Shown: in pieces, positions 11,449 to 24,305 of the stretch
Layout: each line of letters opens with the position of its first letter
How positions within the stretch are numbered: the first letter of the stretch is position 1
Assembly (NCBI GenBank): GCA_041609995.1
Contig: JBFIPU010000002.1
Location: 3,733 to 67,732 of the forward strand
Length of the DNA stretch: 64,000 bases
Origin: Acidimicrobiia bacterium
Lineage (GTDB): Bacteria; Actinomycetota; Acidimicrobiia; Spongiisociales; SHLN01
Direction: 5' to 3'
Program-made: the position numbers and the translations under genes
Notes under the pieces: generated by a model
The model's database searches: none
Seen by the model: only the letters and a program-made list of their open reading frames with translations
What the model was told of the DNA's origin: nothing

Positions 11449-11767
11449 TTCCTGCGTGACCACGGCGCGCGCTGCGTGGTGGTCTCGCATAACCCGAATG
11501 CCGGCGCCATTCCGATGCCGCGGCAGAAGGCTGATGCAGCGAGGGCAACAGAGCCGGGCAAGAAACGGGAGAAACGGTTACGCGTTGAGAGGCTGCGCAG
11601 CCATGCGGGGAAAAACCAGGCGGGTCAAGATTGGGCGGGGCACCCGGGCGCCAGCGAGCGCGCCATCGCCCACCCCCACCCCCACCCATCGTGATGATGC
11701 AGGGCTGAATGATGCAGGGCCGAGCGACGTTCCCGCAGGCGCCTTCAGCGGCATCTTCCAGAGCTGG

Positions 11768-12430
11768 GTGGTGGGTGTTTCCACGATCGCCATGGTCCTG
11801 CTGTTCTTCCTGGCTCGCGAGAGCCTCGAATCGTTGGCGATCGAGGACGGTCCCCTGGAGAATCTGACGGCGCTCCTCTATGGAGTGGCGACGGTGGCCT
11901 TCCTGGTGGCGGTCCGCCGCCGCAGCGCAGGCGTGGTGTGGCTCTTGATCCTGGCTGCCGCCTCGCTATTCGTGGCAGGCGAGGAGATCAGCTGGGGGCA
12001 GCGGATATTCGGCTGGTCGACGCCCGCCGGCATGGCCGAGATCAACGTGCAGGACGAGACGACGATCCACAACATTGAGGGTATCCACGGCAACATCCGG
12101 GCACTGGCGGTGCTGTTCGTCGCCGCCTTCTGCGTGTTGTTACCCCTGACGAATCGGTACCTGTCACCGTTGCGAGCCGCATATCGGCGGCTGGCGATCC
12201 CGATCTTTCCGGTGTCGGCTCTGCCCTGGGTCGCCATGGCCATCGGTTTCATGCTGGTGCCGCGCTTGGTCGCCGAGCACGTGGGATCCCTCGACGAGAT
12301 CGGCGAGACCGCCTTGGGTGTGGCATTTGCGATGTTCGGCTGGGTCTACGCTGTCAAACCCAGGATGCGGGAAGCGCCGCCGTCGATCGGATCGGCGGCC
12401 GATCCTTCGAGGTTCTCGCAGGCGAGCTAG
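11768..12430 (+). CDS. Hypothetical polytopic membrane protein
   Basis: Hydrophobic helices (..VGVSTIAMVLLFFLARESL.., ..VVWLLILAAASLFVAGEEISWGQRIFGW.., ..IRALAVLFVAAFCVLLPL..). The track ORF begins at 11456, but 11456-11760 shows poor GC3 bias, so a GTG start near 11768 was chosen. Start is uncertain. Confidence 0.4.
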   Translation: MVGVSTIAMVLLFFLARESLESLAIEDGPLENLTALLYGVATVAFLVAVRRRSAGVVWLLILAAASLFVAGEEISWGQRIFGWSTPAGMAEINVQDETTIHNIEGIHGNIRALAVLFVAAFCVLLPLTNRYLSPLRAAYRRLAIPIFPVSALPWVAMAIGFMLVPRLVAEHVGSLDEIGETALGVAFAMFGWVYAVKPRMREAPPSIGSAADPSRFSQAS

Positions 12431-12434
12431 CCGG

Positions 12435-12920
12435 CTAGTCGCGGAAATTCGTGTACTGAAGCGGGAGCGGCACGTCCATTTCTTTGACGGCGGCAATGGC
12501 GGTCTGGAGGTCATCGCGCTTCTTGCCCGTCACCCGCAGCTGGTCGCCCTGGATCTGTACCTGCACTTTCAGCTTCAGATCACGGACGTGCTTGGAGATC
12601 GCCTTGGCGTGTTCTTGCTCGATGCCTGAATTCAATCGAAACACGGCCTGCGACCGGCCCCCGCCGATTTCGGTCGGGTCGCCACCGCTGAGGGCCTTGA
12701 GGGACACCCCGCGCTTGATGAGCTTGCTCTGGAGGACGTCGATCGCTGCCCTGACCCGGTCTTCGGTCGAAGACCCCACGGTGATGGTGTCGTCGCCCAG
12801 CGAAAGGCTCGTGCCGGTGTTCTTGAAGTCGTAGCGGTTGACGACTTCCCGATTGGCCTGGTCGACGGCGTTGCGGACCTCCTGCAGATCGATCTCACTC
12901 ACGATGTCGAAGCTGGGCAT
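12435..12920 (-). CDS. YajQ-family (UPF0234) nucleotide-binding protein
   Basis: [33 protein letters not shown]..; ~161 aa from the ATG at 12920. Confidence 0.85.
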
Positions 12921-13003
12921 GCGGGCAGAATAGCCACCGGTCAGGAACAGTTTGTTGCCGGCCGCCGTTAAGAAAGTGCTTGCCACATGAAGGAGACCGT
13001 GCG

Positions 13004-13399
13004 ATGGAGAGCTTGACCGAAACCGAATGGCGCGAGCGCCTCACACCCCAGCAGTTCGAGGTACTCCGCAACGCTGCGACCGAACCCCCGTTCACGGGGA
13101 TCTACTGGGACGAGAAGGCTCCGGGTGTCTACAAGTGCGCTGGGTGCGGGTCGGAGCTCTTCGTCTCGGATACCAAGTTCGAGTCGGGGAGCGGTTGGCC
13201 CAGCTTCTGGGAGCCGATCTCCGACGACGCGGTGGCGCTGAAAGAAGACCGGTCCCACTTCATGGTGCGGACCGAGGTCGTCTGCGCCACCTGCGACGGT
13301 CACCTCGGACACGTCTTCGAGGACGGCCCGGCTCCGACCGGACTGCGGTACTGCATGAACTCGGTGGCGTTAGAGCTCGAAGCGGCCGAGGATGCCTGA
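13004..13399 (+). CDS. msrB: Peptide-methionine (R)-S-oxide reductase
   Basis: Two CxxC pairs (CAGCGSELF ... [16 protein letters not shown]) and the RYCMNS catalytic motif. Confidence 0.9.
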
Positions 13400-13424
13400 G
13401 GGTGATGCATCCCCTCGCTGACGG

Positions 13425-13446
13425 GACCCCGTGAGCGTGCGGGGTC
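13425..13446. terminator. Putative bidirectional stem-loop (GACCCCG-tgagcgtg-CGGGGTC) between convergent msrB and the PRTase-RRE gene
   Basis: Perfect 7-bp GC-rich inverted repeat with 8-nt loop, read directly. No U-tract, so weak as an intrinsic terminator. Confidence 0.3.
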
Positions 13447-13448
13447 GA

Positions 13449-14600
13449 CTACGAATCGTCGGACTGATCGACCAGCAGCCCGGCGGTGATCAGCTGAGCG
13501 ATCAACTCATCGACGTCGGAACCGGCAGTACCGACGTCGATGTTGTAGGAGCTGACGACAGCGGCCACGGTTTCTGACCGCTCCCGCCCGTTCGCCACCT
13601 GGTCCCAGATGAAGGCAGAGGTTCCTGTCAGGCGAACAACCTGTCCGCCGGCCGTGTCGGCCACCACGACAGATTCCTCGTCCTGGGCGTACAGCGTGGA
13701 CGGAGCCAGCCGCATCCAGCCGCTCCATTCGCTGATGGTGCGGATCGGCGTATCGGTCGCCTGGTTCTTGAGACACAGCTCGGGCGGCACCAACCGCCAT
13801 CCGCTCTCGCTCGTATCGAGAGCTCGATTCCAGAATCGGATATCTGGCTCGTTCCACGGAAACACGACGTGGTCCGGTTGGCCGTCCCAGTAGCGGTCGT
13901 CGTGCTCGGTCCACCGCTGCTCCCAATCACCGTGGTCGTCCCCCAGCCGCTCCGGAGCGTGATCCACGAGGTCGACGCCACTCACCACCGAAACCACCCT
14001 GGGCTCGGCTGCAGTAATGGCGGACCGCAGCTGCGGGGTCGAGAACAGCGGCGCGAACACGATTTCACTCGCCTCGAGCCTCGCCAGATGACGCCGGAAC
14101 TGATCTCCCGAGTAGGCGACGTCGTCGAACACGACCAGCGGCCGGGCCTCCGCCTCCGGCTCCGGATCCCCTTGCCCGAGCAGGTACGACATGACCCCGA
14201 GCACGAACCAGCCGCCGCGGGGGATGGCACTCAGCGGCCAGTGCGTGATCCCAGCCCCCAACTCCTCACGCAATCGCCCGGCCAGCGAGCGGCAGGCAGC
14301 CTCGACGCCCGGATAGTCCACATAGCGGGTATGAGGCGCCACGTGGGCCAGCATCCAGTGCAGGGCTGTCAAGCGTTGGAGATCGGCTTCGTCGAAGCGG
14401 CCGGCGATGCCCGCGAGGCCGGTGGCGGGCCTCACCACGAGCTGCGGCTGGTTCATCTGCCGGAGAAGCGGGCTCGACTGGATTCCACGACACGCAGCCA
14501 CTGTTGGGGGCGCGCCGATCCTCTCGCTCATCGGTGAGAAGAACGCGAGGGCAGGGGAGAGGTCTAGAGGTTCGAGGTGTAGCGTTTGGGCTGAGGCCAC
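13449..14600 (-). CDS. Fusion protein: N-terminal type-I phosphoribosyltransferase-like domain + C-terminal PqqD-like RiPP recognition element (RRE); putative leader-guided lasso-peptide tailoring enzyme
   Basis: Central PRPP-loop-like motif RPLVVFDDVAYSGDQFRRHLARL. C-terminal ~85 aa (ESVVVADTAGGQVVRLTGTSAFIWDQVANGRERSETVAAVVSSYNIDVGTAGSDVDELIAQLITAGLLV) has the PqqD/RRE pattern. Begins 9 nt after the precursor stop. Track start is GTG at 14600; internal Mets at residues 24 and 48 are alternatives. Confidence 0.6.
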   Translation of the reverse strand: MASAQTLHLEPLDLSPALAFFSPMSERIGAPPTVAACRGIQSSPLLRQMNQPQLVVRPATGLAGIAGRFDEADLQRLTALHWMLAHVAPHTRYVDYPGVEAACRSLAGRLREELGAGITHWPLSAIPRGGWFVLGVMSYLLGQGDPEPEAEARPLVVFDDVAYSGDQFRRHLARLEASEIVFAPLFSTPQLRSAITAAEPRVVSVVSGVDLVDHAPERLGDDHGDWEQRWTEHDDRYWDGQPDHVVFPWNEPDIRFWNRALDTSESGWRLVPPELCLKNQATDTPIRTISEWSGWMRLAPSTLYAQDEESVVVADTAGGQVVRLTGTSAFIWDQVANGRERSETVAAVVSSYNIDVGTAGSDVDELIAQLITAGLLVDQSDDS

Positions 14601-14609
14601 CCGGGCAAA

Positions 14610-14747
14610 CTAGTTGCCCATTCCTTGCCCCATACCGCTGCCGAAGTTGGCGTCAAAGCCCGGGTTACTTGGCCCGTTCTGTGTGAGCTCGGCAATCGAG
14701 CCCAGCCGCTCCACCTTCGGTTTGGTGTATTCCAGCTTCTTGTCCAT
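14610..14747 (-). CDS. Lasso peptide precursor (45 aa), absent from the ORF track
   Basis: Hand translation of the minus strand: MDKKLEYTKPKVERLGSIAELTQ-NGPSNPGFDANFGSGMGQGMGN*. Leader matches the lasso consensus Y-x2-P-x-L/V-x3-G-x5-T-x with Thr at -2. Core has an Asp at position 9 (8 if Gly is residue 1) for the macrolactam. RBS AAGGGG 7 nt upstream of the ATG. Sits between the cyclase and the RRE-fusion gene on the same strand. Confidence 0.8.
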   Translation of the reverse strand: MDKKLEYTKPKVERLGSIAELTQNGPSNPGFDANFGSGMGQGMGN

Positions 14748-14837
14748 GTCTTACCCCTTGAAGAGCACTCTGTGTGTCAGGATCGACACTGTAAGTGTTC
14801 AGATTAGCGAGAACTTCGCGACCTGCAACCCCTTGCG

Positions 14838-16610
14838 CTACCAGTGATTGCGCAACCACAACTCGAGCGTCACCAGGGCCCAGAAATTGCTATCGAGGGG
14901 TCGGCCCTGACGGAATGCGGCGACGTGTTCGCGCACGCCTTGCGGTTGCGCGTATCCGGCCCGTACCGAGGACATGTCCGTCGTCAGATCGTCGAGCCTG
15001 CGGTTGGGATCGTGGCGAAGATGCTGGTCGAAGAAGGCCACCGGGATCACCTTCGCCAGGGGTTCCACCACCGCCGGAGGGGCCATGGTCTGCAGAGCGA
15101 GCCGGGTCAGGCGTTTGGGACAGCTCGGAGTCTGGACCAGGTGCTGGGGGATGCTGACCACGAGACGGGCGATCCGCAGGTCGCTCCACGGGTCGACCAT
15201 CCGTACGCCCCGGGCCGCATGCATGCGTTGGGACCAGGATGCCACCCGCATCTGAAATGGCGACAGAATCGTCCGCTGCCGTCGACCCGCAGGGCCTCCC
15301 AGGTCTGCGGGCGCGGAGAATCTGGTGAGGAACTGGCCCATGTTCGTCGCCTCTGCGAAGTCGGGGTTCACCCATGATTGCCAGGGCCTCTTGCGGTGCT
15401 TGGCCAGTTCCAGCCGGACGGGTTGGGGAAGCTTGTCCACGAGGAGGGGCCGTACTGCCTCCTTCCAGGCCGACGCCAAGGCCGAGCGACGACCGAATGA
15501 AGCCAGTTCAGACCATGTGCGGCGGATACCCAGATCGGTCAGCATGCCCGACCAGGCGTAGACCTCGGATCCCGTCATCAGATCACCCCGGTTGCCCAAC
15601 ATCATCGCCTCGACGCCTCCATCGGCCGCCCGGCCGACCGTCGCGTGCAGCAGCGGCTCGTAGTGGCCATAGAGCGGATCGTTCAAATCCGGACCCGCTG
15701 GGAATTCGGCCAGCGGCGGCGACGAGTCGGCGTCGATCTCGGTGACGGGGATCTCGAGCGCAGCCGCCAGAGGGTCGCTGAGGTGGCGCTCGTCCACCGT
15801 GGGAGTGGTCGGGAAGGCGAAACTGAATGCTCGCACCGACGTGTCATTCCGGACCTGGGCGGCGGCTGCTGCCAGCGACCCGCTGTCGAGTCCACCGCTC
15901 AGCATGATGCCCGCCGATCGCGGCGGCAGTCGTACTCGCACAGCCTCCTGGAGGAGGTGCGCCAACTCGGCTGTTGCATCGTCGGGGACCGCCCCCGGTT
16001 CGAGGTCCCAGAACCCGGCGCTCGCCACCCCCCGGGGCGAGACCGTCACTACGTGGCCGGGGGGGACCTGCTCGATCCCTTCGAAGAACGTCCACGTTGG
16101 GTCGAAAACGCCGCCCGCCAGATGTCCGGCCACTGCGCGCTCGTTGATCCTCTTGTCCACCAGCCCCGATGCCAGGAGATGGCTCGGCTCGGACGCAAAC
16201 GCCACCAGGCCATCCGAGTGCCAGAAGACCAGCGGACGCAGCGACATCGGGTCGCGGCCCAGGAGGATTGCCCTGGCATCGAAGTCGATGACCGCGAAGG
16301 CGTAGTCGCCCAGGCAACCAGAAGCAGCAGACGTTCCCAGCTTCTCATAGCCGGACAGAATCATCGCAGCAGGGGGTTCGTCGGCGTGGTCGAAGCGAGC
16401 ATCCGCCACAACTAGACGCCGCCCGTCTGCCGACCAGCCAAGGCCAGCAGACTCCCACTGGAGTGGCAGCGAATAGACCCGAGCCGATTCGTTGCCATCT
16501 GTGACCGGATCGCCATCGCGATCACCGGCCGCCGCCCGAGCCATGGCGGACACGGTTCCCGGATCAACGGGTCGACCGTTCAGGTCCACGATGCCGCCGA
16601 TTCCGGGCAT
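14838..16610 (-). CDS. Lasso peptide cyclase (asparagine synthetase B-like, C protein)
   Basis: N-term vestigial glutaminase-like MPGIGGIV..RPLVFWHSDGLVAFASE; PP-loop ATP-binding motif SGGLDSGS; 590 aa. Confidence 0.9.
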   Translation of the reverse strand: MPGIGGIVDLNGRPVDPGTVSAMARAAAGDRDGDPVTDGNESARVYSLPLQWESAGLGWSADGRRLVVADARFDHADEPPAAMILSGYEKLGTSAASGCLGDYAFAVIDFDARAILLGRDPMSLRPLVFWHSDGLVAFASEPSHLLASGLVDKRINERAVAGHLAGGVFDPTWTFFEGIEQVPPGHVVTVSPRGVASAGFWDLEPGAVPDDATAELAHLLQEAVRVRLPPRSAGIMLSGGLDSGSLAAAAAQVRNDTSVRAFSFAFPTTPTVDERHLSDPLAAALEIPVTEIDADSSPPLAEFPAGPDLNDPLYGHYEPLLHATVGRAADGGVEAMMLGNRGDLMTGSEVYAWSGMLTDLGIRRTWSELASFGRRSALASAWKEAVRPLLVDKLPQPVRLELAKHRKRPWQSWVNPDFAEATNMGQFLTRFSAPADLGGPAGRRQRTILSPFQMRVASWSQRMHAARGVRMVDPWSDLRIARLVVSIPQHLVQTPSCPKRLTRLALQTMAPPAVVEPLAKVIPVAFFDQHLRHDPNRRLDDLTTDMSSVRAGYAQPQGVREHVAAFRQGRPLDSNFWALVTLELWLRNHW

Positions 16611-16624
16611 GGTCTCAGACTAGG

Positions 16625-17599
16625 TTGCGCTCGGAAACCTGCTGGGCGGGAGCTATGAACGATTATCGGATCTACGGCCGCAATCTCCGGTCTTCATTCC
16701 GTTTCGAAAACCGGCTGCTCCCGGCTGCCGGCGAGCCCGAGCTCTATTTTGGGGCGGTGGCAGGACCGGCCTTTGACGCCTCGGTCCACAAACTGGTCTA
16801 TCAAACCGAACCGCCCATCTACGACGGGAAGGCCGAGTTGTACCTCTTCAAGGGAGACGACGAGTTCGTCTTTGAATTCACGGGCGCCAGCCGCTTCCAT
16901 GTGAAGAGTCAGGAGATCCTCTTCGAGGTCACCCATCCCGAGTATTCGTTTCTGACCGAGATCTATTTCCTGGGAATCATCATGAGCGCCTGGCTGGAAC
17001 TCCAGGGTGTCATCGCTCTCCACTCGGCGGCGGTGGCGGTCGGTGACAGGGCGGCGGGGTTCGTCGGGCTCAACCAGGCGGGCAAGAGCACGCTGGCGGC
17101 GTCCCTCATGAACAGAGGTCATGGCCTGATGACCGATGACGTGTTGGCCGTCGAGAAAGTCGAAGGCCGGTTCGTGGCCCACCCCGGCTATCCCCAGATG
17201 CGCATGTGGCCGGAAATGGCGATGGCATTCGGCCTCGATCCCGGGTCGCTGCCCAGGGTGCATCCAGAATTCGACAAAGTGCGCGTGCCGGTCGGGGAGG
17301 GAGGATTCGGGCGCATGCGCCGCGAGGCAGCAGAGCTCTCTCGCATCTATGTCGTGAACCGCGATGACCGTGCAGACGCGCCGGCGGTTCAACCGATGAC
17401 TTCGTCCGAGGCGATGTCCGAGTTGTTGCGCACCTCCTTCGCCGGTCTCGTGCTGGGGGGGATCGAGGTCAGCCACACGAGGTTGCCGGTCGTAGCACAA
17501 TTGGTGGGAGAGGTTCCGGTGCGTCGCCTGACGTATCCGGCCAACCGGTTCGAAGCGGCGTTGGAGATGATCGAGGAGGATGTGCGTGGCAGGCTATAG
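16625..17599 (+). CDS. HPr kinase/phosphorylase C-terminal-domain-like kinase (lasso-peptide kinase family)
   Basis: P-loop region LHSAAVAVGDRAAGFVGLNQAGKSTLAASLMNRGHGLMTDDV typical of HprK-like kinases reported in phosphorylated lasso peptide clusters. Start may be the Met at 16655. Confidence 0.7.
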   Translation: MRSETCWAGAMNDYRIYGRNLRSSFRFENRLLPAAGEPELYFGAVAGPAFDASVHKLVYQTEPPIYDGKAELYLFKGDDEFVFEFTGASRFHVKSQEILFEVTHPEYSFLTEIYFLGIIMSAWLELQGVIALHSAAVAVGDRAAGFVGLNQAGKSTLAASLMNRGHGLMTDDVLAVEKVEGRFVAHPGYPQMRMWPEMAMAFGLDPGSLPRVHPEFDKVRVPVGEGGFGRMRREAAELSRIYVVNRDDRADAPAVQPMTSSEAMSELLRTSFAGLVLGGIEVSHTRLPVVAQLVGEVPVRRLTYPANRFEAALEMIEEDVRGRL

Positions 17600-18524
17600 C
17601 CTCGTTCAGTACGGCGAGATGTTGGCTGATCGAGTTCGAACCTCTGCCTACGTCCGGGCCATGGAGGAGACCATCAAGGCGGGTGACGTCGTGCTGGATC
17701 TGGGGGCCGGCCCCGGCTTCTTTGCGATCAAAGCGGCTTTGATGGACGCCAGGAAGGTCTATGCCATCGAGCCCAATCCCAGCATCGCGCTCGGGCGAGA
17801 GCTGGCCCACACAGCCGGGGTCACCGAGCGGGTCGAGTTCATCCACGCGCTCTCGACCGAAGTCGAATTGCCAGAGAAGGCGGATGTGATCGTGGCCGAT
17901 TTGCGCGGTGCGCTGCCGCTGTACGACGGCTCCATCACGACGATTGCCGACGCCCGCGATCGACTCCTGGCGCCGGGCGGTACATTCATCCCGCTGCGAG
18001 ATGACCTCTACTGCGCCCCCACCTCCGGGGCCCTGAGCCGGGGCTACTCGATATGGACCTCCGAGGAAACCGGGCTCGATCTCACTCCGGGAGCCAAATA
18101 CGCCCTGAACACGTGGGATGCGAGACGCGTTGATCCGTCAATGCTCGCCGCCGGCCCGAGGAAATGGGCGAGCATCGATTATCTCTCGGTCGACAGTGCC
18201 GGGATCAGCGGTCGCGCCGTTTGGAAAGCCGACCATCCTTTCGAAGCGGATGGTTTGTGCCTCTGGTTCGAAACCGAGCTGATCCCGGGCATCGGATACT
18301 CGAGCGGACCGTTGGGGGAGGCCACCACGTATCGCATGGCGTTCTTTCCTCTTAGCGAGACCCTCCGCGTCGATGCCGGTGGACAACTGGAGGTGGAGAT
18401 CGAATCGAGCCCAATTGGCGACTCCCCAGCCTGGACCTGGCAGGCGCGGACGGTCGACGCTGCTGGAGCAATACACGAGCCGGCCAAGCAGTCGAGCCTG
18501 CTGTCCATGCCCATTCCCCGCTGA
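17580..18524 (+). CDS. PRMT-like (protein arginine N-methyltransferase fold) class I SAM-dependent methyltransferase
   Basis: RTSAYVRAMEETIKAGDVVLDLGAGPGFFAIKAALMDARKVYAIEPN..VEFIHALSTEVELPEKADVIVADLRG..RDRLLAPGGTFIP aligns motif-by-motif with the PRMT1 core ([53 protein letters not shown]), plus a C-terminal beta-barrel-like domain. Confidence 0.65.
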   Translation: MCVAGYSLVQYGEMLADRVRTSAYVRAMEETIKAGDVVLDLGAGPGFFAIKAALMDARKVYAIEPNPSIALGRELAHTAGVTERVEFIHALSTEVELPEKADVIVADLRGALPLYDGSITTIADARDRLLAPGGTFIPLRDDLYCAPTSGALSRGYSIWTSEETGLDLTPGAKYALNTWDARRVDPSMLAAGPRKWASIDYLSVDSAGISGRAVWKADHPFEADGLCLWFETELIPGIGYSSGPLGEATTYRMAFFPLSETLRVDAGGQLEVEIESSPIGDSPAWTWQARTVDAAGAIHEPAKQSSLLSMPIPR

Positions 18525-18800
18525 TCAAACGACCCGGATCAGGCCCTTCTGGTGAAGATCCGACAGCAGTTCGTGCAGGTCTTGGCGGAGCGTCTCGTCA
18601 TCGACGTCGAACTGACCCGCCAGCTGCTCACGCGCTGCCGCAATGGAATCAGCGCCGCCGACCGCCTTCCACATCGCGAGCGCAACCGGGTCGAGCGAGT
18701 AATACACCTCGGTTCCGAGATGCAAGATGACAGCCTCGCCATCGGCCAGCTCCTGGACCAGTGCGTCGGGTGCCAGCTCAACCCGTCTCGTCTCATCCAT
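18525..18800 (-). CDS. Lasso peptide biosynthesis B1 protein (PqqD-family RRE)
   Basis: 91 aa, MDETRRVELAPDALVQELADGEAVILHLGTEVYYSLDPVALAMWKAVGGADSIAAAREQLAGQFDVDDETLRQDLHELLSDLHQKGLIRVV: classic PqqD-like pattern. Confidence 0.85.
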   Translation of the reverse strand: MDETRRVELAPDALVQELADGEAVILHLGTEVYYSLDPVALAMWKAVGGADSIAAAREQLAGQFDVDDETLRQDLHELLSDLHQKGLIRVV

Positions 18801-18809
18801 GGCAACCTC

Positions 18810-19268
18810 TCAGTCGAACCGTTTGCCTTCTACCGGACCGGCAAAGGGAGCGTACAGCGTTGCGACGTCGTCATCGTCATTCACAACGGAGCCGTCGACC
18901 TCCACCCAGGCGTGAAAAAGGATCGCACCCTCCTCCTTCTTGACCCCGAAGCGCACGTCGGCGGGAATACCATGTTTTCGCAGGAGCGCCAGTGCCGCTG
19001 TCGACCGGGCGAGACAGTTCGGGCGGCCGATCGAGTATTTGGCAGCCAGAGAAACCAGAGATGCGATATGACGAGCTTCCTCGATTGTCGCCGACCTGGG
19101 TGCGGGTCGCCGGGCCAGCAAATCGTGCATTCGCTGAAATCCCGCCAGGCGGAAGCCGATACGGGTTATATGGAGCAGCCACCAGGCGCGAAACAACAGA
19201 CGACGGTCTCTGCCGGTGAGATCTCTGACGAGGATTCGAATCCGATTGGCCCAGACGGAGCGCAGCAT
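18810..19268 (-). CDS. Lasso peptide biosynthesis B2 protein (transglutaminase-like leader peptidase)
   Basis: Catalytic Cys/His/Asp region RPNCLARSTAALALLRKHGIPADVRFGV..GAILFHAWVEVDGSVVNDDD. Start chosen at Met-29 (19268); the track ORF extends to 19352. Confidence 0.85.
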   Translation of the reverse strand: MLRSVWANRIRILVRDLTGRDRRLLFRAWWLLHITRIGFRLAGFQRMHDLLARRPAPRSATIEEARHIASLVSLAAKYSIGRPNCLARSTAALALLRKHGIPADVRFGVKKEEGAILFHAWVEVDGSVVNDDDDVATLYAPFAGPVEGKRFD

Positions 19269-19324
19269 GCTCCAAAGCGTATCGGCTATGGCCGGCACGG
19301 GTCCGCCGCCATCGCACGGTTTCG

Positions 19325-20455
19325 GTGGGCGACAATGACATGGTGACCGCAATGCCGCGCCACGTGCCCCCCTTCTGGCCGGACGAGACGGAACTCGGCC
19401 TGTTGCGGGCTGCCCTCCTCCCAGATCAGCGGGCGATCCACGCCTGGCGGCAATTGGACCTGAGCTCGGTCGGTGCGCGTCACGAAACCTGGAGCCTGCT
19501 TCCCCTGGCGTTTTTCAATCTCAAGGATCTGGGGGTCCCCATCAACGACATGGCCGAGGCGGCCGCCGCCTACAACCGGACACTCGATACCAATCGCGTG
19601 CTTGCTCAGGCGGCCTCGGAGACGATGGCGTCTTTTCTTCGCGAGGGCATCGATCACGTCGCCCTCAAGGGCCTGGCGTTGTTGACGACGGTGTATCCGG
19701 ATCTGGGAACGCGTCCGATGTTCGATGCCGATGTGATGGTGCGAAGTCTCGACGTGAAACGGGCTGCCCGGGTGTTGGGCCGGGCCGGATACCATCCCGC
19801 CACCCCACTCGAGGATGCCCTTCTGGCCACCAGAGCGAGTGCTCAGTTCGTTAATGCGGACGGGATCGACATCGACCTCCATTGGCACGCCCTCGGCGGA
19901 TACGTGGCCGAGCCATTCGACGATGCGCTGTGGCAGGGGCGGGTCACCACCACCTCGCCGCTGGGGATGGAGATGAAGGTGCTGAGCCGGGCCGAGCAGC
20001 TCACCCAGGTGATCGGGCATGCACTCCGCGCCGGGTGGCCAGGCACGCGATGGTGGGCCGATATCGCCCTGCTTCTCAGATCGTCCTGGACCGATGACCA
20101 GTGGTCACGTCTCGGCGAGTTGGCTTCTCTGTTCCAGATGACGCTTCCCATGTCGGGAATCCTGACGTACCTGCGTGACCATGTCGGCATCGATGTTCAG
20201 CGTGAGGCCTTCGAAGTCCTAGAACGCAACCGCCCGTCTCGATCAGAGAGGATTCAACGCCGGGCGCTCAGCAGGCTCGATCCGGGTTCTACGACAGCGG
20301 CCTTGCTGCGGTCATGGGCCACGTATGCCGCCGTGCAAGCCGCCGGGGAACGCCGCCGGGGGCCGGTTGGCTTCACGCGCTTCACATGGAGGTACCTCGG
20401 ATCGGGCTCTGATGCCGGCAATGCACTCGAAGCCATACGTCGCAAACTCAGCTGA
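19325..20455 (+). CDS. Nucleotidyltransferase-family protein (NTP_transf_5/pfam14907-like)
   Basis: ..VALKGLALLTTVYPDLGTRPMFDADVMVRSLDVKRAARVLGRAGYHP.. matches the 'uncharacterised nucleotidyltransferase' family commonly found in kinase-containing lasso clusters. Divergent from B2; the true start may be a few codons downstream. Confidence 0.6.
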   Translation: MGDNDMVTAMPRHVPPFWPDETELGLLRAALLPDQRAIHAWRQLDLSSVGARHETWSLLPLAFFNLKDLGVPINDMAEAAAAYNRTLDTNRVLAQAASETMASFLREGIDHVALKGLALLTTVYPDLGTRPMFDADVMVRSLDVKRAARVLGRAGYHPATPLEDALLATRASAQFVNADGIDIDLHWHALGGYVAEPFDDALWQGRVTTTSPLGMEMKVLSRAEQLTQVIGHALRAGWPGTRWWADIALLLRSSWTDDQWSRLGELASLFQMTLPMSGILTYLRDHVGIDVQREAFEVLERNRPSRSERIQRRALSRLDPGSTTAALLRSWATYAAVQAAGERRRGPVGFTRFTWRYLGSGSDAGNALEAIRRKLS

Positions 20456-20486
20456 GCCCTACGCCAAAGCGGTCGGGGAGCGCGGC

Positions 20487-21617
20487 TCAGAAGAACGAAG
20501 AGTTTTTGTATTCGGTGAGCTGTTCGAGGTTTTCCTGGATGAAGCGGCTCTCGAATTCGGTCCGCACCTCGTCCTGGATCTCCTTGAGCGGCGCCTGGCA
20601 CTCGTGGTCGGCCACGGCCGTGCGGATCTCTTCTTCGCTCAACGCCCGGATCTCGGCAGTGGTGGCCTCGTCGAACTGGGGGCCCTGATTGAACTGATTG
20701 AAGAAGTCCTCCTGCTCCTCAGGGGTGGTGGTTTCGAAGAACTCCTGGATCTCTTCTTCCGACCAGCCCGCAAACGGGTCGACGTAGGCCTCCTCCATCT
20801 TCCTCCAGAAGACTTCGGCCGCTTGATAGAAATACTCCGGCGGCTCCCGGGGGCTGTCGTAGGAGAACCCCTTGTCCGCCATGCACGATGACCAGGCGTT
20901 CTCGGCCTCGACCATGCGGGGATCGGCGCTGATCTGCTGCTCCAGACGGTCGAAAGCCTCGAAAATCTCCTCGTAGTCGAACTCGTCGTTCTCTTCGAAG
21001 TTCCCATAGATCTCGGTGTGAGCTCGGTTGTAACAACCGTTATCGGGATCGAACTCGTTGACCTGTTCGTCCACGTACTCACCCGTCTCCGGGTCGAGCG
21101 CCGGCTCCTCCCAGACTCCATAGAGGTCTTCGTAGTACTGCTCACGCTCGATCTCGGTGAGAGAGTCGACGTACTCCTGATTGGGATCCACGAACTCTTG
21201 CGCCGGCTGTTCGACGTCAGACCACGGATCATCGAGGATGAATGTGGTGGCCCCGTAGCCGAAACGAGCAGCCCGTTCCTGTTCCGTCAGGTCTCCGAAG
21301 GGATCGAAGAACTCGGCCTCGCCGTAGTCGACCGGCCGGTATTCCCAACCGAATTCGGCCATGCAACCCGCAACGACCTCTTCGACCTGGCGCTGCCGGT
21401 CCCGCTCGGCTGCGGGATCGTATCCGTCTCCCCACCCGAAGAACTCCTCGAGCGTGGCAGCCGGGCTCCCGGGATCTTCGCCGTTCTCCGGCGCGGTCGA
21501 AGCGGCTGTGACGTCCGCCTCCGGCTCTCCGTCGTCCGGCGAGGTCGATCCTCCTCCGCAAGCCGCCATGGCCAGCGCTGCCAGCAGCAGGATTGCCGGC
21601 ACCAGCCAACGCGTCAT
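20487..21617 (-). CDS. Highly acidic, aromatic-rich secreted lipoprotein of unknown function
   Basis: Lipobox LLAALAMAACGGGS. Very Asp/Glu/Phe/Tyr/Trp-rich with repeated E-x-F/E-E-F motifs; no recognisable catalytic domain. Confidence 0.6.
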   Translation of the reverse strand: MTRWLVPAILLLAALAMAACGGGSTSPDDGEPEADVTAASTAPENGEDPGSPAATLEEFFGWGDGYDPAAERDRQRQVEEVVAGCMAEFGWEYRPVDYGEAEFFDPFGDLTEQERAARFGYGATTFILDDPWSDVEQPAQEFVDPNQEYVDSLTEIEREQYYEDLYGVWEEPALDPETGEYVDEQVNEFDPDNGCYNRAHTEIYGNFEENDEFDYEEIFEAFDRLEQQISADPRMVEAENAWSSCMADKGFSYDSPREPPEYFYQAAEVFWRKMEEAYVDPFAGWSEEEIQEFFETTTPEEQEDFFNQFNQGPQFDEATTAEIRALSEEEIRTAVADHECQAPLKEIQDEVRTEFESRFIQENLEQLTEYKNSSFF

Positions 21618-21700
21618 GGAATGGAACCGGTCGTCCATCGTCCTCTCCTATGGAAGGTCAGTCAGGATACGCCGGGATACCACCTGGTGCGGGGCTGTGC

Positions 21701-22087
21701 TCAGGCGTCGTAATCGGTGTCGGAAACCTTCTCGTCGAGCCATTCGGTCGGCCCACCGGTCGTGAGCGACAGGTGCATCATGTGCGTGTGGGCCGTCGAG
21801 CCGTGCCAGTGCACTTCACCTGCGGGCGAATACACGACGTCGCCGGCCGACACGCGCACCGTGTGACCGTCTTGGGTCTGGACCTTGCCGGCGCCAGAAG
21901 TGATGTAGAGGACCTGTCCATCAGGGTGGGTGTGCCAGTCGGTGCGAGCACCGGGAGCAAAGTGCACTCCGAGCGCATTGAGGCCGGGGTCGGGGACCCG
22001 GGAGAGGGCTCCGAACCAGACCTCGCCGGTGAAATGCTCAGCCGGAGCGGGCTCCCACTCGATCTGTCCCGCGGGCTTGTGGTCCAT
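21701..22087 (-). CDS. Cupin-domain protein
   Basis: Metal-binding His motifs WHTHPDGQVLYITSGAGKV ... GEVHWHG. RBS GAGGAG upstream of the ATG at 22087; only the last 128 aa of the 243-aa track ORF. Confidence 0.75.
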   Translation of the reverse strand: MDHKPAGQIEWEPAPAEHFTGEVWFGALSRVPDPGLNALGVHFAPGARTDWHTHPDGQVLYITSGAGKVQTQDGHTVRVSAGDVVYSPAGEVHWHGSTAHTHMMHLSLTTGGPTEWLDEKVSDTDYDA

Positions 22088-22250
22088 GTTGCTCCTCTCA
22101 GTCTCTTGACGTGACGTCATCGGGTCGTATGCCGACACTAGCTCCAGAGCGCGATTTCTTCCCGAGCAACCAAACGCGTTCAGGGGTACCATCCCGCCCG
22201 CTGGACGAGGGTCTCGAAAGGGGAAGATCATCGGCAAAAGGAGGCGGGCA

Positions 22251-24305
22251 TTGGTGGCTCGGGATGGTCTACCCGGCTCGGTGGCGGGGACGCTGGTGGC
22301 AACGGGGCCGGTGGCGAGGGCGCTGGCAACGGCGGCAGCCCTGGCGTGCGCTGCGTTGATTCTCATGGTTCTGGGGTCCGGCGACGCAGCAGCGTCGGAA
22401 GCAACCCCGGTGACCTTCGTCGACCTGCGCACCGGCCAGTGGTTCTTACAGCATTCAGACGGAACCGAGGTCGCTTTGTACTACGGAGCGCCCGGCGATC
22501 AGCCCCTGATGGGTGACTGGGATTGCGACGGAACCGCCACGCCCGGGGCCTACCGGGCGAGCGACGGCTTCGTGTACCTGAGAAATACACTCGACACCGG
22601 TCCAGGGACGATCCGGTTCTTCCTCGGCATGGCCGGAGACGTCGCTCTGGCAGGGGACTTCAATGGCGATGGCTGCGATAGCGTCTCGATCTATCGACCG
22701 TCGGAAGGACGGGTGTACGTCTCCAACTCACTCGGGTCCGAGGAGGGATACTTCACTGCCGAGGCCGACTACTTCTTCGGTGTGCCGGGGGATAGAGCTT
22801 TCGTGGGTGATTTCGACGGCGACGGCATCGATACCGTGGGACTGCACCGCGCCTCGACCGGGTTCGTCTATTTCACCGACGAACACGCTCCCGCCGGTTT
22901 CGCTGAGACCTCCGATAGCTTTTTCTACGGGGATCCGGGCGACCTCATCACGGCCGGCGATTGGAGCGGCGACGGGACGGACACCGTGGCGATCCTCCGC
23001 CGGGGCGACGGGCGTTTCTATGCACGCAACACGAATTCGCAGGGGCCCGCCGACGTGGTCGTGTCGGTCCCGGGGGATGGGTTGTGGGTGGCTCTGTCCG
23101 GAGCGGGTGTCGGCGGGTCGATCGGATCCCCGTCCCCATCGCCCCCATCGCCGACTCCGCCGCCGGCCCCGCCGCCTCCGCCCCCACCGATTCCCACCGG
23201 CCCGATCGAGATCTTCCCTGGTGACCCCCTGGCGGACCTCGTCGGCGCCAGCCCGCCCGGTACCGAGTTCATCATCAAGGCGGGTGTTCACGTCGGCCAT
23301 GTGATGTATCCGGCGGCGGACATGAAGTTCCTGGGCGAGCCGGGAGCGGTCCTCGACGGGAATGGCGTGCAGCTGAATGCCTTCGCCGGGGATACCGGGA
23401 GGGACCGGGTCGAGATCCGGGGCCTCGAGATCAGAAACTACCGGGTGGGTGTCTTCGACGGCGCCATCAGCGCCCGCCAGATCGGAGATCTGTCAGCCGA
23501 GGGAGTCGGCTGGATCGTTGCCGACAACAACATCCATTCCAACGGGGGCGCCGGCATCAACCTCGGCACCGGAATGACGGTCGTCAACAACTCGATTCAC
23601 GACAACCAGCAGATCGGAATCAGCGGCCTGGGGAGCGAAGAACACCCGATCACGGACGTCACGATCACCGGAAACACCATCTTCCGGAACTCGACGAACC
23701 CCGATTTCGTGTTCGAGCACCACGAAGGCGGGATCAAGACCACGTTCACCAGCAGCCTCGTCGTGGAGGACAACGAGATCTACGACAACGGCGGGGTCGC
23801 CATGTACTGCGACATCCTCTGTAACTCGGTGGTGGTCACCGGCAACCGGATGTACGACAACTGGGGCCGGGCCAACGGCGGCGGCGTCTTCCTCGAGATC
23901 TCGGACGGGCTCGAGGTGACCAACAACTATTTCGGTCCCGGGGGTCACCTCACCTATCCGTACACGATCTACTTCTTCGGCGGGATCACCATCGGCGAAT
24001 CGCACAACGGGTACATCTCCGGCAACGAGGTGGAAGTCGACACTGCGGCCGGCATCGTGGTGCGCAACTGCTGCTCGCACGAGCGGGAGCCTTCCAGCGG
24101 GATCGTGATCGAGAACAACGTCGTGCGGTCGATCAACGGGGGACCCGTCACGGTCGGCTTGACCGACGGGAACTCCAATGTGGGCGACATCTCGTATCGG
24201 GGCAACACCTACCAGGGCGATATCCGGTTTTACTGGAATGGTGGGTGGCTCGGTTTCGACCAATGGCAGGGAATGGGCCAGGACACCACTGGTAGTTTTG
24301 GCTGA
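22251..24305 (+). CDS. Secreted multi-domain protein: FG-GAP/VCBS-like 'GDW/FDxDGxDT' repeat region, Pro-rich linker, right-handed parallel beta-helix domain
   Basis: Signal/TM near ALATAAALACAALILMVLG. At least 5 repeats of [FY]-[FY]-G-x-[PA]-GD-x-[PA]-[LF]-x-GD[WF][DN]-[GC]DG-x-D-[ST] ... GF[VA]Y. Linker SPSPSPPSPTPPPAPPPPPPPIPTGP. C-terminal NxxIxxN/G-rich beta-helix repeats (ADNNIHSNGGAGINLG..VVNNSIHDNQQIGISG..TGNTIFRNS..EDNEIYDNGG..TGNRMYDNWG). Confidence 0.7.
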   Translation: MVARDGLPGSVAGTLVATGPVARALATAAALACAALILMVLGSGDAAASEATPVTFVDLRTGQWFLQHSDGTEVALYYGAPGDQPLMGDWDCDGTATPGAYRASDGFVYLRNTLDTGPGTIRFFLGMAGDVALAGDFNGDGCDSVSIYRPSEGRVYVSNSLGSEEGYFTAEADYFFGVPGDRAFVGDFDGDGIDTVGLHRASTGFVYFTDEHAPAGFAETSDSFFYGDPGDLITAGDWSGDGTDTVAILRRGDGRFYARNTNSQGPADVVVSVPGDGLWVALSGAGVGGSIGSPSPSPPSPTPPPAPPPPPPPIPTGPIEIFPGDPLADLVGASPPGTEFIIKAGVHVGHVMYPAADMKFLGEPGAVLDGNGVQLNAFAGDTGRDRVEIRGLEIRNYRVGVFDGAISARQIGDLSAEGVGWIVADNNIHSNGGAGINLGTGMTVVNNSIHDNQQIGISGLGSEEHPITDVTITGNTIFRNSTNPDFVFEHHEGGIKTTFTSSLVVEDNEIYDNGGVAMYCDILCNSVVVTGNRMYDNWGRANGGGVFLEISDGLEVTNNYFGPGGHLTYPYTIYFFGGITIGESHNGYISGNEVEVDTAAGIVVRNCCSHEREPSSGIVIENNVVRSINGGPVTVGLTDGNSNVGDISYRGNTYQGDIRFYWNGGWLGFDQWQGMGQDTTGSFG

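Follow-up and report, generated by a model that had tools for sequence, protein, structure and literature searches.

The DNA analyzed here (the window) is a stretch of 64,000 nucleotides from an Acidimicrobiia bacterium. We mapped a gene cluster in it by transferring the gene calls of locus L001, which is 99.9% identical to positions 11661..22579 of the window, and by scanning with the Pfam and NCBIfam models. The genes of the cluster and the translation signal of its short gene A are as follows.

13449..14600, minus strand: PRT_RRE, a PqqD/RRE fusion protein of 383 aa with a PRTase-fold domain and a C-terminal lasso-type RRE
14610..14747, minus strand: precursor gene A, 45 aa plus stop, ATG start, product MDKKLEYTKPKVERLGSIAELTQNGPSNPGFDANFGSGMGQGMGN, NCBIfam NF033521
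14754..14759, minus strand: Shine-Dalgarno-like AAGGGG, 6 nt 5' of the precursor ATG, read directly from the sequence
14838..16610, minus strand: lasso cyclase C, 590 aa, Asn_synthase plus GATase, PF00733 4.6e-26
16655..17599, plus strand: HPr-kinase-like peptide kinase, 314 aa, Hpr_kinase_C weak
17586..18524, plus strand: PRMT-like SAM methyltransferase, 312 aa
18525..18800, minus strand: B1, discrete RRE (PqqD), 91 aa, PF05402 1.5e-16
18810..19298, minus strand: B2, transglutaminase-like leader peptidase, 162 aa, PF13471 (Transglut_core3) 6.2e-23
19340..20455, plus strand: NTP_transf_5 nucleotidyltransferase-like protein, 371 aa, PF14907 2.2e-32

The initial annotation of this DNA had described gene A as a 45-codon ORF translated by hand from the minus strand, and on re-translation its position, strand, and product are all identical to those it gave. 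The AAGGGG that was read as a ribosome binding site is likewise present (14759..14754), and the gene does lie between the cyclase gene and the RRE-fusion gene. The same annotation called the gene unannotated. This holds for the ORF track on which it relied but not for public data, in which the identical 45-aa protein is a called but nameless gene on 20 contigs (Logan SRR29257xxx runs and a 98-kb NCBI contig).

The cyclase gene lies 90 nt upstream of gene A and the B1 and B2 genes approximately 4 kb away, all on the same strand. Together, A, B1, B2, and C make up a complete lasso gene set, and the cluster is of class II. The best NCBIfam match of the cyclase is the lasso isopeptide cyclase model NF033535, at 157 bits, which is under the 525-bit cutoff of that model. 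Housekeeping genes (MsrB, YajQ) flank the cluster. A 264-aa ORF at 18552..19346 on the plus strand was considered as a further cluster gene and rejected: it has no family match, it overlaps the minus-strand genes B1 and B2, and it is a shadow ORF of GC-rich DNA. Directly adjoining the NTP_transf_5 gene, at 20487..21638 on the minus strand, is a gene for a very acidic 383-aa protein that carries a lipoprotein-type signal (…LAALAMAACGG), matches no family model, and is also conserved in L001. At 22251..24305 on the plus strand, 1.8 kb past the cluster, a 684-aa beta-helix/NosD/FG-GAP-like protein is encoded. Salinibacter ruber locus L091 also ends with a NosD/beta-helix protein (16727..18201), which is possibly a coincidence.

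Public gene calls start PRT_RRE at an ATG at 14456, giving a protein of 335 aa, and an alternative GTG start at 14600 gives 383 aa. The GTG appears to be the likelier start because the 48 codons that it adds (14457..14600, minus strand) align with a conserved N-terminal extension of the homologs (…SP.L…LVVR). This would place the beginning of PRT_RRE 9 nt past the stop codon of the precursor gene.

The predicted leader of the gene A product spans residues 1-23 and contains Y7-x-x-P10-x-V12-x3-G16-x5-T22-Q23, which sets it in the canonical register for B1 recognition, with Y(-17), P(-14), V(-12), G(-8), and T(-2), and with Q23 as residue -1. The earlier statement that the leader fits the lasso consensus, with Thr at -2, is borne out both by these residues and by a score of 21.7 bits against NF033521 lasso_leader_L3 ('lasso RiPP family leader peptide-containing protein'), for which the curated cutoff is 19 bits. 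The YxxPxL motif at -17 to -12 is described in PMC10368454, which cites Chekan 2019 and Sumida 2019, as an accepted ruler for the boundary between leader and core. In this peptide, the YxxPxL ruler and Thr(-2) agree with one another and place the cut between Gln23 and Asn24, which leaves the following core.

Residues after Q23: predicted core, NGPSNPGFDANFGSGMGQGMGN

The core contains one acidic residue, an Asp at position 9 (or 8, should cleavage occur one residue later), and the 13-residue tail that follows it ends in Asn. The peptide has both a candidate acceptor Asp and a tail of sufficient length for threading. It does not have a small residue (Gly, Ala, Ser, or Cys) at core position 1, which is Asn under both rulers. 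A small first core residue is typical of lasso precursors, although it does not strictly define them, and Asn, Val, or Thr at this position is unusual.

A direct homolog search with the 45-aa query returned the query itself, one 48-aa relative, and no others. The family was found by way of the loci collected by the fusion protein, followed by a profile search: a profile built from the 21 precursors adjoining PRT_RRE retrieved 132 proteins. The conservation counts are for 117 of these, non-redundant precursors from many phyla in which the leader block from the Tyr to the residue after the Thr has an equal length of 17 residues. Three leader residues, Y(-17), P(-14), and T(-2), do not vary in the family, and Y(-17) and T(-2) are found in 117/117. 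The occupancy of the conserved core positions (n = 117) is as follows.

Core position 1: V 79, T 26, A 6, N 4, Q 2
Core position 2: Gly 117/117
Core position 4: Thr 111, Ser 5 (116 together)
Core position 6: Pro 106/117
Core position 7: Gly 113/117
Core position 9: Asp 116/117
Core position 13: Gly 113/117
Core position 14: Ser 100 (plus 2 Thr)

The window peptide is therefore one of only four relatives with Asn1, and it has Ser4 where most have Thr4. The ring-forming spacing that had been assigned to its lone Asp is supported by the conservation of Asp9. The tail has no conserved bulky residue, Gly13-Ser14 is near-invariant, and the C-terminal residue varies across the 117 relatives (R, G, S, V, N, K, and others). 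NCBI already names several of the relatives, from Salinibacter ruber, Halomonas, Billgrantia, and Trueperaceae, as lasso leader-containing proteins. The match to a curated HMM, the A/B1/B2/C gene set, the at least 117 homologs in the same register, and an adjoining RRE like those of TbiB1 and TfuB1 support the earlier identification of the window ORF as a lasso-peptide precursor, and it belongs to a subfamily that is widespread and apparently unstudied. Among the related loci, the Trueperaceae contig L062 carries three precursor genes (at 1207, 4391, and 4623), and L091 of Salinibacter ruber is a supercluster in which two cyclases are accompanied by three HprK/ScmC-like genes.

Across the broader collection of precursors adjoining the fusion gene, T-x is followed by G, N, E, L, S, T, V, A, or Q, and the cores start with N-I-L, E-K-F, L-D-G, E-M-P, or G-G-S, with Gly2 often absent. 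Since precursors beside the same fusion gene vary at this position, variable first core residues appear to be normal for these cyclases. Because both leader rulers put the cleavage before the Asn, we regard a cut after Gln23 and a ring between Asn1 and Asp9 as probable. The initial annotation had offered both N1-D9 and G1-D8; the comparative data favor the former, and the invariance of Gly2 leaves room for the latter. In that case the same lasso precursor would be cut after Asn24, yielding an eight-membered Gly1-Asp8 lactam and placing the Thr at -3. An invariant Gly preceded by a residue that varies among V, T, A, N, and Q is what would be expected of a ring-forming N-terminus, and the conserved Ser/Thr would become residue 3, which is the position phosphorylated by BsfK in the Gly1-Asp8 peptide BsfA (PMC10368454). 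However, Y(-17)xxP(-14)xL(-12) and T(-2) are independent of one another, both direct the cut to a point before the Asn, and their spacing is invariant in the family. In addition, the neighbors of the same fusion gene whose cores start with N-I-L, E-K-F, L-D-G, or E-M-P have no Gly2, and an invariant Gly2 within the Asn1-Asp9 register has a precedent, since Gly2 is essential in MccJ25, as are Gly1 and Glu8 (PMC8498205). We consider cleavage after Asn24 to be distinctly the less probable of the two.

The N-terminal region of PRT_RRE has the type I phosphoribosyltransferase core fold, and its matches to sequence profiles are weak (PF24390, E 0.004; PRTases of the PDB, E 0.01-0.1). The RRE of the protein is close to the lasso RREs TbiB1 (1.5e-16) and TfuB1. 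TbiB1 and TfuB1 (PDB 5v1u and 6jx3) are discrete proteins, whereas the window RRE is fused to an N-terminal enzyme-like region of ~250 residues in a cluster that keeps a separate B1. An alignment of 27 diverse homologs contains an invariant PRGG loop, corresponding to the pyrophosphate loop, and an invariant PRPP acidic loop, VV(F/V)DD...G; all members have G81, G82, D111, D112, and G117, and nearly all have R80. These loops are followed by a family-specific middle region (FPWNEPD, PPELCLKN) and then by the C-terminal PqqD domain. The conserved region between the core and the RRE sets PRT_RRE apart from the type I PRTases (OPRT, purine PRTases, and UPRT; PDB 5vog, 4ohc, and 4trb), with which it shares 9-24% identity. 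The acceptor of those enzymes is a base, whereas that of PRT_RRE is presumed to be a peptide. Homologs of the fusion protein form 62 clusters at 90% identity, some with both PF00156 (Pribosyltran) and PF05402 (PqqD), and a profile search of the full library at E <= 1e-30 gives at least 422 representatives of the family (50% clusters). A role for PRT_RRE as a hidden leader peptidase was also considered and, on balance, rejected, as the 27 members have no conserved Cys-His-Asp set: the His of the QPDH stretch varies, and of a protease-like triad only Cys228 is near-invariant.

The kinase encoded in the cluster is an HPr-kinase homolog with a His/Lys/Asp/Asp motif. It matches Hpr_kinase_C of Pfam (5.9e-5) and the HprK-related kinase A/B models of NCBIfam, both under the cutoffs. 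Its motif reads LHSAAV...GLNQAGKST...TDD, with GLNQAGKS as the P-loop and an arrangement of H...K-S...DD, in which the spacings from H to K (21) and from S to D (16) are equal to those of H148/K169/S170/D186 in BsfK (PMC10368454). The methyltransferase is a full-length homolog of eukaryote-type PRMTs (E 3e-23 against PRMT6 over residues 8-281). The position of the double-E loop is occupied by D...D (ADLRGALPLYDG) and that of the THW loop by TTY. Because the core peptide has no Arg, the methyltransferase probably acts on something other than arginine. The NTP_transf_5 protein is of the same Pfam family as the nucleotidyltransferase-like genes found in other lasso clusters. Across the related loci, its gene and the methyltransferase gene are both accessory. 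By tblastn, the methyltransferase gene is present in L011 and L012, the closest relatives of the window, the cores of which have Asn1 and a C-terminal Gly-Asn like the window core, and in L028, L035, and L036, the cores of which differ.

Among characterized systems, the nearest are the phosphorylated lasso peptides paeninodin, ThcoA, SyanA, pseudomycoidin, and BsfA. The ring of paeninodin, like the predicted ring of the window peptide, comprises 9 residues and begins with a residue other than Gly followed by Gly (A1-G2...D9). The paeninodin group of clusters (PadeA/PadeK, ThcoK, SyanK, and the pseudomycoidin pair PsmK/PsmN) resembles the window cluster in its split B1/B2, its Asn-synthase-like cyclase, its HPr-kinase homolog, and, often, an NTP_transf_5-type gene (PMC9266682). 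In that group, the kinases modify a strictly conserved C-terminal Ser, and the NTP_transf_5-type PsmN decorates phospho-Ser (PMC9266682). In contrast, the window core ends in Asn, the C-terminus of its family is variable, and the conserved hydroxyls are internal (Ser/Thr4 and Ser14). None of the paeninodin-type clusters has been described as containing a PRTase-RRE fusion or a PRMT-like methyltransferase, and the window cluster has both. The Bsf cluster of Bradymonas sediminis (PMC10368454) shares with the window a kinase with equal H...GKS...DD spacing, a nucleotidyltransferase, and split B1/B2. There, BsfK phosphorylates an internal ring Ser of BsfA located five residues before the ring Asp, and B1 accelerates the reaction (PMC10368454). 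Lasso kinases in general act on leader-bearing precursors and are accelerated by B1 (PMC9266682, PMC10368454). BsfA differs from the window family in having Ile(-2) and a Gly1-Asp8 ring, whereas Thr(-2) is invariant in the latter, and a PRTase-RRE fusion is absent from the Bsf cluster. In the Bsf study (PMC10368454), the mature peptide was never observed, and the products of all members of the window family are likewise predictions.

A genome scan with the fusion profile yielded 80 loci. Their hosts include Acidimicrobiia, other Actinomycetota, Gemmatimonadota, Rhodothermales/Salinibacteraceae, cyanobacteria, Acidobacteriota, Chloroflexota, Trueperaceae, Nitrospirae, Spirochaetales, among others. 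Genes most often follow one another in the order C, A, PRT_RRE, HPr-kinase-like gene, and the precursor gene lies directly upstream of PRT_RRE in loci of many phyla. Of the 59 loci with room on both sides of PRT_RRE, 37 have a kinase gene no more than 600 nt away from it. Most of the fully flanked loci have the kinase, and some, such as L017 and L074, do not. Salinibacter ruber L091 has the arrangement B2-C-A-PRT_RRE-kinase, and in Halomonas campisalis and another Halomonas (L093 5998..10538; L094 5867..10546) a C-A-PRT_RRE-kinase cassette is situated between truA and trpF. Three cyanobacterial loci (L043, L048, and L089) have a PRT_RRE and HPr-kinase-like pair with no cyclase within ~10 kb; in L048, a lasso-like leader peptide with an unrelated core (VLASDLQQINKF...) is found just downstream of the pair. 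The cyanobacterial pair may serve another peptide class.

Given these features, we think it likely that gene A encodes a class II lasso precursor that forms an Asn1-Asp9 ring and is tailored by PRT_RRE and the kinase, at Ser14 and/or Ser4, prior to leader removal. The enzyme-fused second RRE would bring the leader-bearing precursor to the PRPP-type phosphoribosyltransferase domain before B2 and C act, and the HPr-kinase-like kinase would also act on the precursor. B2 would then cut after Gln23, and the cyclase would join the alpha-amine of Asn1 to the side chain of Asp9, producing a lasso with a 9-residue ring and a 13-residue tail and a calculated mass, before tailoring, of 2093.83 Da. The likeliest targets of tailoring would be the near-invariant hydroxyls, Ser14 (in Gly13-Ser14) and/or Ser4. 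A phospho- or phosphoribosyl-type group at Ser14 could serve as a steric plug in a Gly/Met/Asn-rich tail that has none of its own. It could function in this way because Ser14 is located five residues past the ring Asp in a tail that has no conserved bulky residue, and the near-invariance of Gly13-Ser14 in such a tail is compatible with tailoring that supplies the steric bulk, as the initial annotation had surmised. In the clade of the window, the PRMT-like methyltransferase and the NTP_transf_5 protein would add further modifications. Weighing against this proposal, the sites modified by the characterized lasso kinases are a C-terminal Ser or Ser3, and the window core ends in Asn.

We know of no peptide-modifying type I PRTase. 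We put forward, tentatively, that PRT_RRE could be a leader-guided, peptide-modifying phosphoribosyltransferase that transfers 5-phosphoribose from PRPP onto Ser14 or onto the phosphate placed there by the kinase. Since some PRT_RRE loci have no kinase, it would be able to act on an unphosphorylated peptide, and the absence of the kinase from L017 and L074 suggests that the enzymes do not have to work one after the other. The weak PRTase profile scores mean that the domain could bind rather than catalyze.

One such binding role would make PRT_RRE an alternative leader-handling scaffold that substitutes for B1 and may have a further role in processing, with the PRTase-like domain as a regulatory nucleotide or PRPP binder and with a product that is unmodified or merely phosphorylated. 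Consistent with this, among the 23 loci that have a cyclase and at least 6 kb on each side, B2 was not detected in 10, and neither B1 nor B2 was detected in 7 (L093, L094, L021, L030, L040, L041, and L065 are loci of this kind). In the bare C-A-PRT_RRE-kinase cassettes of Halomonas, PRT_RRE must be the sole RRE, and its closeness to a genuine lasso B1, TbiB1, points in the same direction. However, the window cluster has a B1 and a B2 of its own, so a substitute is unneeded, and the invariance of the PRPP loop (DD...G) and the pyrophosphate loop (RGG) in 27 members is hard to explain for a scaffold. A processing role would also have to contend with the lack of a conserved protease-like triad. 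We therefore regard a pure scaffold as unlikely.

Returning to gene A itself, the regular expression Y..P.[LVI]...G.....T. has a single match across six reading frames of the 64-kb window, and this match lies at the precursor; composition-preserving shuffles give a mean of 0.145 matches per window. Orthologs hold the same position in L011 and L012, and over the first 39 codons 8-12 synonymous-only and 14 non-synonymous changes separate these from the window gene, with the leader/ring block ERLGSIAELTQNG identical in all three. A consensus scan for a promoter or terminator found nothing meaningful, the 176-nt spacer 3' of the precursor folds no better than its shuffles (z = 0.27), and an Rfam search of the window gave no matches. 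That gene A is a chance ORF in GC-rich DNA that is not expressed, as its shortness and the results of the promoter, terminator, and spacer analyses might suggest, is highly improbable and is effectively refuted by the comparative data, given that it passes the cutoff of a curated lasso-leader HMM, has a leader motif that occurs once in the window, shows synonymous substitutions along with conservation of both location and sequence across phyla, and is surrounded by a full lasso enzyme set.

As a lasso precursor, the gene A peptide is ordinary, and the lasso-leader model of NCBI already names its relatives. In contrast, the PRTase-RRE tailoring module appears to be uncharacterized in the searchable literature. 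In the searchable open literature, we found no paper that ties lasso peptides or RREs to PRTases, although an earlier mention elsewhere is possible, and nothing relevant on lasso peptides with arginine methyltransferases or from Salinibacter or Halomonas. A report of 2026 presented ADP-ribosylation of a RiPP as new, and that reaction involves another enzyme class (PMC12912966).

If the proposal is true, the window cluster would make a phosphoribosylated lasso peptide whose steric plug is the added group itself, and this would be, to our knowledge, the first PRPP-dependent modification of a ribosomal peptide. The tailoring family would have several hundred members in at least 10 phyla, among them those of the culturable Salinibacter ruber and Halomonas. 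The small cassettes of culturable hosts, for instance the four genes in Halomonas, make the tailoring directly testable. If PRT_RRE is active, it would represent a new class of RiPP chemistry and would provide a test of whether a post-translational group can lock the lasso fold.
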